Shown here one piece after another: positions 745 through 63,929 of a stretch of DNA of 64,000 bases; the stretch's first letter is position 1, and the number at the start of each line of letters is the position of its first letter. A model generated the notes under the pieces. The model saw only the letters and a list, made by a program, of their open reading frames with translations, did no database searches and had not been told where the DNA came from. The stretch lies in the IMG/VR virus record IMGVR_UViG_3300046514_000653, positions 12,303 to 76,302 of that record. The stretch is one strand, 5' to 3'. The stretch comes from a virus. The translations under genes were made by a program, and so were the position numbers.

Positions 745-1223
745 AGCTGCGCAAAGGAAACATGTTCGAGTCGCGCGCCGAGCTAGTGCTAGTAACTACC
801 AATGCCATGGTAAGAGCCAATGGAAGTCTAGTCATGGGCAGAGGAGCGGCGAAGGAGTTGGTGGATAGGTTTCCAAGGATCGACCGGGACTTCGGGTCGA
901 TACTGCGTATGTCCAGTCTTGTCGGCAAGACTTACGGTGTGATGATTCTCGGAAAAAACTTCCCACTGAAAGATCTAGATTCTATTTTCCACTGCAAATT
1001 TGGAGTCTTCCAGGTCAAGTATCACTGGAAGGACAAAGCGAGTTTGAACCTGATCCACAATTCAGTCGAGCGGCTGTGTGAATTGATCGACGGAAATTCG
1101 GCACAGAGTTATAGAATCTCTCTGAACTTTCCGGGGATTGGGAATGGAAGGTTGACGAGAGAGCAGGTGATGCCGTATATCGAGAAGCTTCCGGACAACG
1201 TAACTGTCTGGGAAAAAGAATAA
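741..1223 (+). CDS. macrodomain (ADP-ribose binding/hydrolase, DarG/Poa1p-like) protein
   Basis: KGNMF, VTTN...VMGRGAAK...FP, FQVKYHWK, FPGIGNGRL motifs. Confidence 0.8.
   Translation: MKLRKGNMFESRAELVLVTTNAMVRANGSLVMGRGAAKELVDRFPRIDRDFGSILRMSSLVGKTYGVMILGKNFPLKDLDSIFHCKFGVFQVKYHWKDKASLNLIHNSVERLCELIDGNSAQSYRISLNFPGIGNGRLTREQVMPYIEKLPDNVTVWEKE
789..799. repeat. palindrome site (10/11) CTAGTAACTAC
   Basis: Inside macrodomain gene, read as LVTT. Confidence 0.7.
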
Positions 1224-1235
1224 GACAGTCAGTCA

Positions 1236-2882
1236 ATGCTTGAAGACCTTACGCCAGCAGACCTAGGATTGCCGAAGAAGTTCACCGAGTTCCGGCCGAT
1301 TCAGGACTCCATGGTCCAGTTCGGGCTCTACGGTCAGAACGACAGGATCAGAAGAGTCCATGCGCTCGGCGTACCCCCTGGAGGCGGCAAGTCGGTGGGC
1401 GCCCACGCAATTGGCCGGCTGAGCGGTGGGAAGTATGCAGTGTTGACGGTCTCACTGAGTCTCTCCGATCAATATCTTGACGACGGGTTTGCGGTGACCG
1501 ACATCCGCGGCAAGAAAAACTACACGTGCTTTGCCGAGCCCGAACAAATGGGCATGAAGTTTACCGAGCCGCTCAATTGTGAGCAAGGGGAGCAGGAGGA
1601 TTGTCCTTTTGCCGGGAGCGGGGATTGTCATTATCACGCGTGGGTGGGAGTAGCGAAGGAAGATCAATTCGGAATCAGTTCTAACTATCAGTACTGGATG
1701 AGCGCCAGAAGAAATCGCGCGGCTCTTGAGGAAGAAGGCGGCGGCAATCCGATTCAAATGTTGATCGGAGATGAAGCTCACCTCATCCCTGGCGAGCTGA
1801 GCAGACATCTCGGCGCTTGGTTCTCCTCCAATACGCTGCAGTCCTTAGGTGGAGAAGCGTACCGGCACGCGCTAGGAGAGACCAAAGGCGGGGAATGGGG
1901 AAAGGTGGGTGTAGGCTGGCTCAACGCGCTGGGCAGCGCCTGTGCAAGAGCGGACAGCATCCTGGCAGAGATTGCGGATGAGTACGGAAGTGTTTATTTA
2001 GCCAATAAGAAGAGCGCGGAGTACAGGAAGCTCGACAAGATCAGGGATGCGCTCATCAGAGTTGTAAGACACGGCGGGGATAACAACTGGATTTGGCATT
2101 GGGAAGGGAAAGGGATTAAGTTCGATTGCATCTGGCCGCGGCTGTATGCGGAGCAGTATTTGTGGCAAGGGATACCACGGATCGTGCTCATGTCCGCGAC
2201 GCTCCGTCCGAAGACGCTGAACATGCTTGGGATCAAAAGCGGGGAGAGATGGTTTAAAGAGTGGCCGAGAGTGTTTCCTGCGCACTACACGCCGATCTAC
2301 TGGGTGCCGACCGGACGGATGGGGAAGAAGGCGAGTGAGGATGAACGCGGGAAGAGTGTAGAACGGTTTGACGAGATCTTTGCGCTTTGGGGTGAGGGGG
2401 CGGGGAAGAAGGGGATCGTCCACGTGCCGAGCTATGACCTGGCTGTGTGGATGCGGGATCGGAGCAGGTTTGGAAGGAAGATGATTCTCAATGAAAAAGG
2501 GGAGGTGGGCGGGCAGACAAGAGCGGCGACGGAGTACAGAGAGAAGAAAGGTGCGTGTGCTCTTGTCAGCCCGAGCTTTACAACCGGGTATAACTTTCCT
2601 GATGAAGAGTGCGAATGGATTCACATCCCAAAGTTACCCTGGCCGTACAAAGGCGATCCGGTGGTGCAGGCAAGATGCGCGGATGATGAGACGTATTACA
2701 ATTCCGAGACCATGCAGCAATTGGTCCAGAGTTGTTTCCGCGGAACAAGGCACGACCGGGATAAATGCACGGTGATTATCACTGATGACGCAATCGGTGG
2801 ATTTAGATGGTATGCGAAGGAGTACGCGCCACAGTATTTCAAGATCATGGAGAGGGCGGAAGTACCGAGACCAAGAGGCTAG
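1236..2882 (+). CDS. DinG/Rad3-family SF2 helicase, probably with Fe-S cluster
   Basis: Q motif RPIQ, Walker A PPGGGKS, four Cys after IRGKKNY, DEAH, MSATL, IPKLPWP, QSCFRGTRHDRD. Confidence 0.85.
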   Translation: MLEDLTPADLGLPKKFTEFRPIQDSMVQFGLYGQNDRIRRVHALGVPPGGGKSVGAHAIGRLSGGKYAVLTVSLSLSDQYLDDGFAVTDIRGKKNYTCFAEPEQMGMKFTEPLNCEQGEQEDCPFAGSGDCHYHAWVGVAKEDQFGISSNYQYWMSARRNRAALEEEGGGNPIQMLIGDEAHLIPGELSRHLGAWFSSNTLQSLGGEAYRHALGETKGGEWGKVGVGWLNALGSACARADSILAEIADEYGSVYLANKKSAEYRKLDKIRDALIRVVRHGGDNNWIWHWEGKGIKFDCIWPRLYAEQYLWQGIPRIVLMSATLRPKTLNMLGIKSGERWFKEWPRVFPAHYTPIYWVPTGRMGKKASEDERGKSVERFDEIFALWGEGAGKKGIVHVPSYDLAVWMRDRSRFGRKMILNEKGEVGGQTRAATEYREKKGACALVSPSFTTGYNFPDEECEWIHIPKLPWPYKGDPVVQARCADDETYYNSETMQQLVQSCFRGTRHDRDKCTVIITDDAIGGFRWYAKEYAPQYFKIMERAEVPRPRG

Positions 2883-2892
2883 AGGCTAACAA

Positions 2893-3150
2893 ATGAGCGA
2901 CAGAAAACAATACCCGGATGTCAAAAGCTCTGTAGTGAAAGGAGATGTGATCAGTTTATTTCGTGATAACGACACACGCACATACAGACTGTTTGTAAGT
3001 AAGGAATGGAAAGAGATTCCTCCAAATAAATTTTCATTTGACAGATGTGAGTGTTGTGACCTTTCACTTGAGGATCTCCGTCAGTTGTCGGCACGTATCG
3101 ATGAAATTGTTTTAGCACATGAGGAATGGCGTCCTTTAGAAGACGATTGA
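2893..3150 (+). CDS. hypothetical protein
   Basis: ORF in operon order, lower GC than neighbours. Confidence 0.6.
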   Translation: MSDRKQYPDVKSSVVKGDVISLFRDNDTRTYRLFVSKEWKEIPPNKFSFDRCECCDLSLEDLRQLSARIDEIVLAHEEWRPLEDD

Positions 3151-3176
3151 CTTTGTTATACGACATACACTATACT
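3147..3176 (+). promoter_or_regulatory. sigma70-type promoter, likely leaderless transcript
   Basis: TTGACT (3147-3152), 18 bp, TATACT (3171-3176); ATG at 3184, no SD. Confidence 0.75.
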
Positions 3177-3183
3177 TCACCTC

Positions 3184-62370: not shown

Positions 62371-62374
62371 CGTT

Positions 62375-63124
62375 TTAAATCGTTATGGTCCACGTCACTG
62401 AAAGCGTGTCGCCGTTGAGCAGACTGGCGGACGAGAACGTATCTTCAAAGCACATCGTTCCAGACGAGACCGCTGTAAACACAGCCCCGGCCTGTGCAGA
62501 CTGTGTACCGGTCGCTGTGAAGGTGTGAGCAATGGTATAAGTCGTGGCATTGGCAGAGTGCGTGTAAGTTCCCTGTGCGCGTCCAAGCCCATTGGTAGTG
62601 ATCTCCGCTCCGACCGTTGTGGCTAGAGTCGTATCCCCAGCCGCGGGCGTGCCAGCGCCGTTAGAGAGCCCAATGTAATTGCACTGCGTGTTGACAGTGG
62701 GCGTAGTCGTATTGGACATGATGTCCGCAAGCCAGTTCAGCCCGGCGTTGACGACTAGATTCCAAGTAAAATTTGCCTGAACCTTTTTCCAGCAAAGCGA
62801 TTCGGCAGTCCCTGGATCTTCTCTATCGCCCTGATGATGCAGTTCTGCGTAAACCAGAGTTGCTTCCAAACTATCGGACATCTCCAGCTTATTTAATTCA
62901 GCTTGAGCCTCCGCAATGGAACAAACGCCAGTTGGACGCCGTTGTACAGTCAGGACTAGATTATGCTTACCAGGAAGGCGTGATACATCCTCCAGAATCG
63001 GGCGCCCGCGTCCCACTTGCGTTGCAGGACTGGAAGAGATCTGCACGGAATCTACGTTTTGAGCGGAAAGGGAAGGAACGACAAGAAACAGCGAGGTGAA
63101 GAGCGAGGCAAAGAACAGTCGCAT
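62375..63124 (-). CDS. phage structural/fibre-associated protein with signal peptide
   Basis: ATG 63124 with RBS AGGAG; MRLFFASLFTSLFLVVPSLSA-Q; NLVVNAG...YIGLS.G...P.AGDTTL..EI...GDTLSVTWTI. Confidence 0.65.
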   Translation of the reverse strand: MRLFFASLFTSLFLVVPSLSAQNVDSVQISSSPATQVGRGRPILEDVSRLPGKHNLVLTVQRRPTGVCSIAEAQAELNKLEMSDSLEATLVYAELHHQGDREDPGTAESLCWKKVQANFTWNLVVNAGLNWLADIMSNTTTPTVNTQCNYIGLSNGAGTPAAGDTTLATTVGAEITTNGLGRAQGTYTHSANATTYTIAHTFTATGTQSAQAGAVFTAVSSGTMCFEDTFSSASLLNGDTLSVTWTITI

Positions 63125-63190
63125 AACAGTTTCTCCTAAAGGTAAATTTACAACACCGCAAACTGGTAGGTAGATTAGCACACTAGAAGT

Positions 63191-63874
63191 CTATGCCGCC
63201 GCTTCACCCACCTCTGTCTCAAACTCCACCTTGCCAACCTCAGTTCCCAACCTGCGGATCGCCATCTGCACATCACTCAAAATATGCTCGGTCGCTTCAT
63301 CCACCAACACTCCCACTTTAATCGGGTCAGTCTCAGACGCCAACGCGTCTCGCATCTCCACCGACATACGCGAGAGCATGTCACGCAACCGGACAAGAGC
63401 GCCGCCAATGACATAGTCGACCTGGACACGTGGGATTAGAGTCTGTAGAGCTTGCGCGACCCGGATCTCGCGCTCGGTCGCCAGAGCCCGTTCCTTCCTG
63501 GCCTTCGCCTCATACTCATTCTCCAGCCGCATCTCACCGGTCTGGTCGTCAGTAACCCAGACCTGCCCACCCTGGCTCGCCCGCGGTTGCGTATGTCCAA
63601 GCTCTGGCCGCTCCGTCTTCCGCTCGCCACCTCCATGGGCCTTCTTAACACCAGCATCTTCCTGCTTTTTATACTTACTTCGTACCTGATCTACAGTCAG
63701 ACCGCGGTTCAAATGTCGGCTCACCATCGTAGAGGAGAGACCGAGTTCGCGCGCCAATGCATTCACGCTAGTGAACTGACCGCTGTTCTCAGATTTGATA
63801 GAAGGCTTGGTCAATGGCTTAGCCGCTAACTTGATCTGCGACTTCCTCTTTGGTACATACGCCATAAAGGACAA
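63191..63874 (-). CDS. terminase small subunit (Nu1-like)
   Basis: HTH SVNALARELGLSSTMVSRHL; EAKARKERALA..RE coiled coil, LIPR..V. Confidence 0.8.
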   Translation of the reverse strand: MSFMAYVPKRKSQIKLAAKPLTKPSIKSENSGQFTSVNALARELGLSSTMVSRHLNRGLTVDQVRSKYKKQEDAGVKKAHGGGERKTERPELGHTQPRASQGGQVWVTDDQTGEMRLENEYEAKARKERALATEREIRVAQALQTLIPRVQVDYVIGGALVRLRDMLSRMSVEMRDALASETDPIKVGVLVDEATEHILSDVQMAIRRLGTEVGKVEFETEVGEAAA

Positions 63875-63918
63875 GCATACAGCAAGCGGCTCATTCGCGA
63901 CAAATCCGACCTAATCGG

Positions 63919-63929
63919 CTAGTTACTAG
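63919..63929. repeat. palindrome site, exact (GCTAGTTACTAGC)
   Basis: Upstream of TerS. Confidence 0.9.

Follow-up and report, generated by a model that had tools for sequence, protein, structure and literature searches.

Genome-wide copies of a 13-bp palindrome in a soil phage and a ParB/KorB-like protein as their candidate reader

The phage genome and its palindromic sites

The stretch of DNA considered here, called the window throughout, spans 64,000 nucleotides and corresponds to bases 12303-76302 of the 76,302-bp IMG/VR record IMGVR_UViG_3300046514_000653, a siphovirus-like phage (G000) from a soil habitat whose genome is rated complete by CheckV. An initial annotation of the window, made from its letters alone, had pointed to an 11-bp palindrome, CTAGTWACTAG, repeated across it, and this element is the subject of the present work, together with a phage-encoded ParB/KorB-like protein (P0121) that is proposed as its candidate reader. 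The replication and early genes occupy the plus strand up to window position 21682, and the virion genes run along the minus strand from window position 63874 down to 21651, including those for TerS, a lambda-GpA-type TerL, the portal, an S49 protease, the major head protein and a tape-measure-like protein. The gene calls made for this analysis give a coding fraction of 93.6%. A search of the genome for a tyrosine integrase found none (serine recombinases were not searched for), and a search for ParA (AAA_31) gave no match, with a control that was positive in 14 of 14 genomes. Besides the genes named in the table of sites below, the following features are relevant to the argument (genome coordinates are those of the whole record):

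Window 1236-2882, plus strand: helicase, in the replication/early arm
Window 19357-20814, plus strand: DNA polymerase, in the replication/early arm
Genome 7348-8697, minus strand, outside the window: C5 cytosine methyltransferase gene, between two long non-coding stretches
Genome 9683-9976, outside the window: XRE-type helix-turn-helix (HTH) protein, immediately upstream of the ParB-like gene
Genome 10034-11263, outside the window: ParB/KorB-family protein P0121, 409 residues, directly downstream of the XRE-type regulator gene

The initial annotation had listed ten exact copies of the palindrome and nine with one mismatch, and all of them were found where it had placed them; a tenth one-mismatch copy, at 20053 (CTAGTTATTAG), had been overlooked. 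The enrichment is far above that of dinucleotide-preserving controls: the window contains 10 exact copies, compared to none in every one of 100 shuffles, and 20 copies with at most one mismatch, when the shuffles average 0.30 and never exceed 2, and a second-order Markov model of the site count yields P of about 9e-33. The 12.3 kb outside the window contribute three exact copies, at genome positions 3957, 6756 and 7341, and one with a single mismatch, at 9555, so that the whole genome holds 13 exact and 11 one-mismatch copies, but only 3 copies with two mismatches. Because chance similarity would give the opposite trend with mismatch number, nearly all the near-copies must be considered genuine members of the family. 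The depletion of CTAG that is usual in bacteria, as remarked in the initial annotation, is not seen in this genome overall, with 182 occurrences observed and 182 expected. The sites, in window coordinates unless marked, are the following:

789..799: one mismatch (CTAGTAACTAC), within the phosphatase-like gene 741-1223
4787..4797: exact, overlapping the TAG stop of gene 4575-4790 and 17 nucleotides upstream of the gene for a 229-residue protein, 4815-5504
9721..9731: exact, coding (Leu-Val-Thr-Ser), gene 9457-10278
10505..10515: one mismatch, coding, gene 10226-10732
16135..16145: one mismatch (CTGG variant), coding (Leu-Val-Thr-Ser), gene 15019-16242
17582..17592: exact, coding (Leu-Val-Thr-Ser), gene 17513-18199
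20053..20063: one mismatch (CTAGTTATTAG), within the DNA polymerase gene 19357-20814
24267..24277: exact, intergenic, 23 nucleotides upstream of the 203-residue gene 23632-24243 (minus strand)
33988..33998: exact, coding (Leu-Val-Thr-Ser), 36 nucleotides into the 906-residue gene
34046..34056: exact, intergenic, 11 nucleotides upstream of the 906-residue gene 31314-34034 (minus strand)
36760..36770: one mismatch (CTGG variant), within the 1433-residue gene
42342..42352: one mismatch, within the 1270-residue tape-measure-like gene
46606..46616: exact, overlapping the stop codon of gene 46606-46989 (minus strand), the next gene lying 192 nucleotides downstream of the site
49274..49284: one mismatch (CTGG variant), intergenic, 19 nucleotides upstream of the 118-residue gene 48898-49254 (minus strand)
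52486..52496: one mismatch, intergenic, 36 nucleotides upstream of the gene in the decoration-protein position, 52072-52449 (minus strand)
54473..54483: one mismatch, intergenic, 12 nucleotides upstream of the S49 protease gene 52559-54460 (minus strand)
56365..56375: one mismatch (CTGG variant), intergenic, 16 nucleotides upstream of the portal gene 54510-56348 (minus strand)
57125..57135: exact, coding (Leu-Val-Thr-Ser), in the C-terminal tail of TerL
59252..59262: exact, 13 nucleotides upstream of the TerL ATG
59272..59299 (no site): sigma-70-like promoter candidate TTGAAA-16-TAAAAT on the minus strand, immediately upstream of site 59252, 10/12, by consensus match only
63919..63929: exact, 44 nucleotides upstream of the TerS gene 63191-63874 (minus strand), between the divergent arms
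Genome 9555, outside the window: one mismatch, containing the stop codon of a gene for an Arc-like ribbon-helix-helix (RHH) protein, genome 9154-9561

When the 24 sites were pooled and read in both orientations, positions ±1 to ±5 proved to be conserved at 90-100%, position ±6 was G or C in 73% of the cases, positions ±7 to ±11 were at background, and the centre was A or T equally often. The full element is a 13-bp palindrome, GCTAGTWACTAGC, with nothing beyond ±6, and neither a promoter hexamer nor any other accompanying signal was found in the flanks of the 24 sites. The CTGG variant has the same orientation on the plus strand in five of five cases, which was judged not significant (two-sided P of about 0.06). 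With the genome treated as a circle, the sites are separated by a mean gap of 3.2 kb and are spaced more evenly than expected, with a coefficient of variation of 0.65 as compared to 0.94 for random placement (P=0.017). Sites 33988 and 34046, which are 58 bp apart and flank the start codon of the 906-residue gene, are the only two in the genome to stand close together.

Placement of the sites and selection on DNA

The initial annotation had taken the fact that coding copies read Leu-Val-Thr as a sign of selection on the DNA. The reading itself carries no such information: in two of its frames, 2 and 3, the palindrome has a TAG whichever strand is read, so that intragenic copies always read Leu-Val-Thr-Ser/Arg, in the only frame that remains open. 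In contrast, the idea of selection on the DNA itself is borne out by a control that preserves the encoded proteins, since synonymous-codon shuffles of the coding sequence produce on average 0.06 exact copies and 0.69 copies with at most one mismatch, whereas 5 and 11 are observed. The proteome contains five peptides of the type Leu-Val-Thr-Ser/Arg (1.1 expected), and all five are encoded by the motif codons, which codon usage predicts at about 0.3% per peptide; four of the five are exact palindromes, though CTA accounts for only 9% of the Leu codons. Clearly, the coding copies are selected as DNA.

A signal acting in RNA (a terminator, a processing site or a translational operator) would look different. 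The symmetry of the element reaches positions ±1, that is, the loop position of any RNA hairpin, which are still complementary, and among the one-mismatch copies present in mRNA four would retain a G-U pair and three would make an A-C mismatch in the stem, a proportion that matches random transitions. No T-run was seen after the sites either; in these respects the element does not behave as an RNA hairpin signal would. Since the symmetry includes the loop positions and pairing is not preserved, the element is read as double-stranded DNA by a two-fold symmetric reader.

In regard to placement, 14 of the 24 sites lie in or touch gaps between genes, and of the 40 intergenic gaps that measure 20 nucleotides or more, 13 are occupied, an approximately 20-fold enrichment. 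The nine copies that had been described as lying just upstream of start codons are indeed there: eight are intergenic sites of the minus arm, located 11-44 nucleotides upstream of the genes encoding the 203-, 906- and 118-residue proteins, the protein in the decoration position, the protease, the portal, TerL and TerS, and the ninth is the site at 4787, at 17 nucleotides. The description "upstream of late genes" is thus correct as to where these sites lie, but it is weak evidence for a promoter or a late regulator. In a genome that is 94% coding and whose genes are co-directional, all gaps precede start codons, so proximity to a start codon says little, and the intergenic bias is partly explained by the TAG in two frames, which pushes sites into gaps. 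Moreover, two-thirds of the gaps are free of sites, the sites stand at no fixed distance from the start codon (11 to 44 nucleotides) and ten of them are intragenic, for which reasons the placement does not in itself point to a promoter or ribosome-binding role. A sigma-70 promoter element as the identity of the motif was discarded because the flanks show no conservation. One site does coincide with a possible promoter, given that 59252 would occupy about +3 to +13 of the candidate at 59272..59299, the best sigma-70-like match of its region.

Arrays in related phages

Close relatives among cultured phages were not found, as both a megablast of 25 kb and a tblastn of the ParB-like protein against them gave no match; a scan of genome contigs found no homolog, and a metagenome scan returned short contigs only. 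A scan of IMG/VR with the single TerL sequence gave no match, and the relatives were reached by alignment-based queries with proteins of the early arm (the ParB-like protein, the adjacent 417-residue protein and the polymerase); the phage group recovered in this way has the replication module in common. Relatives defined by TerL (47-55% identity) are common in soil metagenomes; in 889 kb of their loci the form xTAGxWx'CTAx' was present only in L008. Unbiased palindrome discovery was carried out on 14 further records, with G000 as the fifteenth. Strongly enriched arrays were present in 8 records of the group; G001 and G009 seem to be parts of a single genome, which brings the count to at least six phages. 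The arrays of the relatives are these:

G001 and G009: GTAGGWCCTAC, 9 and 5 copies
G006 and G013: GTAGAWTCTAC-like, 6 and 4 copies
G010, G012 and G016: TGTAGASTCTACA, 12, 7 and 6 copies, with P values from 1e-9 to 1e-29

All variants retain a TAG...CTA core and a single-base centre, and the differences lie at ±1, ±5 and ±6. G001 (L090 and L091) and G009 (L129 and L130) come from the same metagenome (3300037840), share their motif and each include the major head protein gene, where they overlap; it is probable that they represent the two halves of one genome, which would be the closest relative of G000. The region in which the ParB-like gene would be expected lies between the two fragments and is covered by neither.

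The sites recur at corresponding places in these relatives. A palindrome is located 5 nucleotides upstream of the TerL open reading frame in G001, compared to 13 nucleotides in G000, and about 2-5 nucleotides upstream of the G006 ortholog of the 229-residue gene (4815-5504), compared to 17 nucleotides in G000; a site also precedes the operon formed by the XRE and ParB-like genes in G000, G012 and G013. For the portal the correspondence is approximate only, because the site is upstream of the gene in G000 but within the first ~125 nucleotides of the G001 open reading frame. The polymerase gene illustrates a different kind of conservation: it holds one site in G000, in G006 and in the clade of G012, G013 and G016, and these sites fall at alignment columns 149, 246 and 298, that is, at non-homologous codons. 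Being at three different columns, they must have arisen independently, which suggests that it is the density of sites, rather than one particular place, that is under selection. Taken across the relatives, the sequences point to a protein-binding network of changing specificity.

Some members of the group have no array at all but may nevertheless keep a site or two, as is the case in many ParB systems; in G007, for instance, one single TCGTAGCGGCTACGA is present. Phyletic profiling with the genes of G000 and the open reading frames of G012 identified no gene confined to array-bearing genomes, although small, fast-evolving proteins would be missed by this approach.

A few other repeats were encountered in these searches. 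In a 9.8-kb metagenome contig encoding a ParB-like homolog (L088), TGTGCCAGT/ACTGGCACA is repeated seven times at 587-833. The repeats form two opposed clusters that fit within 250 bp and by sequence look like an origin of the iteron type, and the contig contains no palindromes with the TAG core. Among the TerL-relative loci, L038, L021 and L028 contain several 11-mers repeated 9-25 times (CAGGCGTTGCG and GCTACCAAGCC 25 times each in L038), which may be tandem repeats or an array. Finally, in G017, a relative with 44% GC, the match to the ParB-like protein (57688-58842) is split, with one TAA within the second piece, and could correspond to a frameshift, a broken gene or two genes.

A ParB/KorB-like protein and other candidate readers

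The proposal of the initial annotation that the palindromes form a binding network for a dimeric protein extending over both arms is supported by the symmetry of the element, by the selection on DNA and by the positional conservation in relatives, and it is very probable that the sites are specific binding sites for such a protein; neither a lack of enrichment over shuffled controls nor a lack of positional conservation, which according to the initial annotation would have refuted the network, was observed. The identity of the reader is less certain, and we assign a probability of about 0.5 to the reading that it is P0121. In sequence searches this protein matches Spo0J (phmmer, 2e-7), a Myxococcus ParB and KorB, and belongs to the PHROG family "ParB-like partition protein" (1.9e-14). 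Its DNA-binding part (residues 110-250) has KorB as its best match (1r71, 3e-5), with DPATVTQY aligned to SPAFITQH in KorB and the HTH and following helices reading VADFIGIDPATVTQYERLLAAPQELQDSVRTGR in P0121 and IAKEIGKSPAFITQHVTLLDLPEKIADAFNTGR in KorB. An AlphaFold2 model (pLDDT, predicted local distance difference test, 85.6) superimposes best on KorB from its complex with KorA and DNA (8qa9), with a TM score of 0.67, a root-mean-square deviation of 3.1 Å and 27% identity, and a Foldseek search with this model recovered ParB, KorB and Noc at E values of 1e-7 to 1e-9. The nucleotide-binding motifs GxxRxxA (GNRRLEA) and ENxxR (DENRRRE) are intact, the N-terminus has no motif resembling the ParA-interacting LG[KR]GL, and the protein ends in an extra conserved helical domain followed by a Lys-rich tail. 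About 37 metagenomic homologs were found at E<1e-30, among them P0122, whose recognition helix is identical.

Within the group, an ortholog of P0121 is encoded by the six of six array-bearing records that cover the region, as well as by about five or six array-less relatives. In 10 of 12 group genomes (G007, G010, G012-G017 and G020, in addition to G000) the XRE gene directly precedes the ParB-like gene, often overlapping it, and most of these operons have a -35-like hexamer, TTGACW, ahead of them, some also with a plausible -10. This layout is reminiscent of that of korA-korB, and the site at genome 9555 lies upstream of the candidate promoters of the operon.

The closest counterpart of such an arrangement would be KorB and its operator, OB, in plasmid RK2. 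KorB is likewise a ParB-family protein with an N-terminal CTPase domain and an HTH, and, as noted, the best match of the DNA-binding part of P0121 in sequence and in fold. As represented by an oligonucleotide in PMC11790492, OB is TTTAGCSGCTAAA, a 13-bp palindrome with a single central base, which is also the format of the phage element; RK2 has 12 KorB-binding sites according to the title of a reference cited in the same work (PMC11790492). In both cases a dozen or more copies are distributed over a replicon of 60-76 kb at variable distances from promoters, and a small HTH regulator (KorA in one case, the XRE protein in the other) is encoded just upstream in the same operon. The differences are also evident: the replicon here is a phage with no lysogeny or plasmid-maintenance genes detected and no ParA/IncC partner, the number of sites is doubled and a good part of them are intragenic, the upstream regulator is of the XRE and not the KorA type, P0121 carries the additional C-terminal domain and tail, and its binding to the sites, use of CTP and repression are predicted.

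Two further relatives of the system are instructive. Noc, with its binding sites (NBS) in Bacillus subtilis, is an orphan ParB paralog without ParA function that binds scattered palindromes not clustered at the origin, and it is among the top fold matches of P0121. Noc has an N-terminal amphipathic helix that tethers DNA to the membrane, and acts in the control of cell division; neither such a helix nor a membrane-tethering role is evident in the phage protein. Partition systems of phage-plasmids (P1 ParB-parS, N15 SopB) also combine a phage-encoded ParB-family protein with cognate inverted repeats, and in N15 several SopB centromere sites are dispersed in the genome. The phage described here differs from them in that no ParA/SopA ATPase was found, the LG[KR]GL motif is missing and there are 24 sites rather than 1-4, so that neither the ParA-type ATPase nor the ParA-interacting N-terminal motif expected of a parABS partition system was found. 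The parS-like or chromosome-organizing option put forward in the initial annotation comes closest among those it offered, but in a form resembling KorB or Noc, without ParA.

Several observations weigh against P0121 as the reader of a genome-wide array. Its Pfam matches, including that to ParB_N, are under the curated cut-offs. The array-less G007, G015, G019 and G020, and probably G014 and G017 (with no palindrome in at least three copies), encode the XRE-ParB pair, and G015 has no site even though many of its proteins are 60-88% identical to those of G012 and G016; as array-less relatives carry the core module too, the ParB-like protein would be at most necessary, not sufficient. Conversely, the array-bearing G001 and G009 lack a ParB-like gene, although neither fragment spans that region, and the even spacing of the sites reaches only modest significance.

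The strongest competing candidate is the XRE protein, as a dimeric repressor with many operators in the manner of P1 C1 or phiC31 c, either as a partner of the ParB-like protein or unrelated to it. It matches HTH_31 (6.8e-7) and HTH_3, its gene precedes the ParB-like gene as consistently as described above, the site ahead of the operon in G000, G012 and G013 is what autoregulation predicts, and small HTH dimers can read compact palindromes, as is the case for KorA and its 12-bp operator OA (oligonucleotide in PMC11790492). However, the XRE recognition helices are rather dissimilar among the three phages with TGTAGASTCTACA, whereas their ParB helices (SRATVTQH, SRAQVSEH and SRATVSQC) are similar. 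Furthermore, the residue aligned with T211 of KorB, which we take to be a base-contacting one, is T in G000 and D or E in all GTAGA-type phages. This pattern favours the ParB-like protein over the XRE protein but is suggestive only, because the correspondence between residue and motif, another point that counsels caution about P0121, is based on six genomes related by descent. The XRE gene is also found in array-less relatives; in G006 some 2 kb separate it from the ParB-like gene, and the 1.5 kb ahead of it are free of sites; and a repressor bound at promoters is not expected to have deep intragenic sites with even spacing, though stoperators show that this can occur. Therefore, the XRE protein is regarded as an unlikely, albeit serious, candidate.

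It is considered improbable that the reader is an RHH protein or another small phage repressor acting in stoperator-like silencing. The initial annotation had named two RHH-like proteins of the window, of which 302-547 has no Pfam family match and 3184-3402 shows a NikA-like RHH match (9.2e-6) just below the cut-off; neither is detectably conserved in array-bearing relatives, and this also applies to the third candidate, the Arc-like protein at genome 9154-9561 whose own stop codon lies inside the site at 9555, although such short proteins may escape BLAST. In addition, a single RHH dimer usually reads a core shorter than 13 bp. The many 13-14 bp sites of the cluster A mycobacteriophages (the stoperators of L5 gp71), placed in and between genes and read by a phage-encoded regulator, do recall the present array (PMC9283540). 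They are, however, asymmetric, bound by a monomer and oriented with respect to transcription, and they belong to temperate phages, whereas the element described here is a perfect palindrome present on both arms of a genome in which neither a tyrosine integrase, another lysogeny marker nor an immunity module was found. The stoperator option of the initial annotation thus fails on the symmetry of the site, and neither a tyrosine integrase nor ParA was found to support it (serine recombinases not being searched for).

Somewhat less probable still is a transcription factor or nucleoid protein of the host exploited by the phage, in which case the differences in motif would reflect different hosts. 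The genomes of phages may contain numerous sites for a regulator of the host, as indicated for CtrA in phages of Alphaproteobacteria (PMC9437464), and a host factor would explain why G015 is devoid of sites despite encoding the XRE and ParB-like proteins. Against this, a TAG..CTA architecture is common to all three forms of the motif, as if one cognate pair had drifted, and a site placed ahead of the operon for the phage's own regulators is suggestive of autoregulation. A late promoter or activator site (comparable to the palindromes in late promoters dependent on P1 Lpa or P2 Ogr) or a translational or RNA hairpin signal has very little probability: the nine sites upstream of start codons and the intergenic enrichment speak for it, but nothing is conserved past ±6, so that no -10 or -35 lies at a set distance, and the sites extend over both arms, early replication genes included, as well as into genes, where they are under selection as DNA. 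The fixed distance to a -10 and transcription start and the restriction to late operons that would be expected of a late-type site are thus not seen. Equally remote is another DNA transaction, such as site-specific nicking (T5-like or phiKMV-like), targeted base modification, recombination or packaging: the sites are dispersed genome-wide, two of them flank the C5 methyltransferase gene, and phage ParB-like proteins can activate DNA-modifying enzymes, but those associated with 5mYOX thymine dioxygenases lack a DNA-binding domain (PMC13229309), unlike P0121, which has an HTH, and no nuclease is linked to the array. The methyltransferase gene is missing from array-bearing relatives and present in the array-less G020, and a role of the sites as its target was discarded for this reason; a search for modification enzymes of the Tet/JBP type gave no match, with a control search that was uninformative.

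Returning to P0121 as the reader, a mechanism can be outlined by analogy with KorB-OB of RK2 and Noc-NBS of Bacillus. The 24 copies of GCTAGTWACTAGC would be sites for a phage-encoded, two-fold symmetric protein, most likely P0121, whose dimer would recognize the palindrome through its KorB-like HTH; the N-terminal CTPase domains would then close into a clamp able to slide off the site. With a site every ~3.2 kb, within and between genes, the protein could occupy or patrol the entire phage chromosome and affect transcription where the clamp meets promoters, for example that of TerL or that of its own operon. In this outline the identity of the reader, the binding of CTP, the sliding and the biological outcome are inferences. 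A mobile clamp fits the intragenic sites, the independent polymerase sites, the even spacing and the lack of a fixed relation to promoters better than a promoter-bound repressor does, and local effects on transcription, as at site 59252 by the TerL promoter or at the genome 9555 site by the XRE-ParB operon, are plausible. The outcome could be either the timing or silencing of genes or the organization or protection of the replicating genome. In its most general form, which we put forward only tentatively, the picture is that of apparently virulent soil phages in which a partner-less CTP clamp of the ParB/KorB type, together with an XRE protein as co-regulator, would be loaded over the entire viral chromosome from a lattice of 6-24 palindromes whose sequence is particular to each lineage. 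The result would be a kind of phage "chromatin", serving to time or silence transcription or to shield or organize the replicating genome, with a fast-evolving specificity and with arrays gained and lost between close relatives.

A literature search revealed no description of a phage with a genome-wide palindrome array of the ParB/KorB type. Orphan proteins with the ParB fold are common in phages, and the survey that reports them leaves their roles open (PMC12704722). A phage with two dozen candidate loading sites would represent a testable system for a ParB-type clamp beyond chromosome segregation, for which the relatives with rewritten sites and the near relatives free of sites provide natural controls. 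If P0121 is indeed the reader, regulation at long range, as exerted by KorB, would be found in viruses as well as in plasmids, and the protein/site variants for CTAGT, GTAGG and GTAGA would help to decode the DNA specificity of the ParB family. Should the XRE protein turn out to be the reader, the array would still be a palindromic, genome-wide operator network of a kind that we have not found described for phages.

Some minor features of the genome and its close variants deserve mention. The non-coding stretches on either side of the C5 methyltransferase gene are unusually long: genome 6465-7347 (883 nucleotides) contains two exact sites and one two-mismatch copy, and genome 8698-9153 (456 nucleotides) contains, at 8801-8829, the strongest sigma-70-like promoter found, TTGACA-17-TATAGT with a TG. 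Four other metagenome runs, from rhizosphere or soil, contain near-identical contigs (at least 99%), and those compared with window positions 44001-64000 show ~1.6% divergence in the most divergent run. In the strain of run X4, 15 other letters (GAGGGAACCAGAGCC) stand in place of the 61 nucleotides that separate site 52486 from the end of the protease gene (window 52498-52560), while the match of the contig to the window continues through the whole palindrome at 52486.

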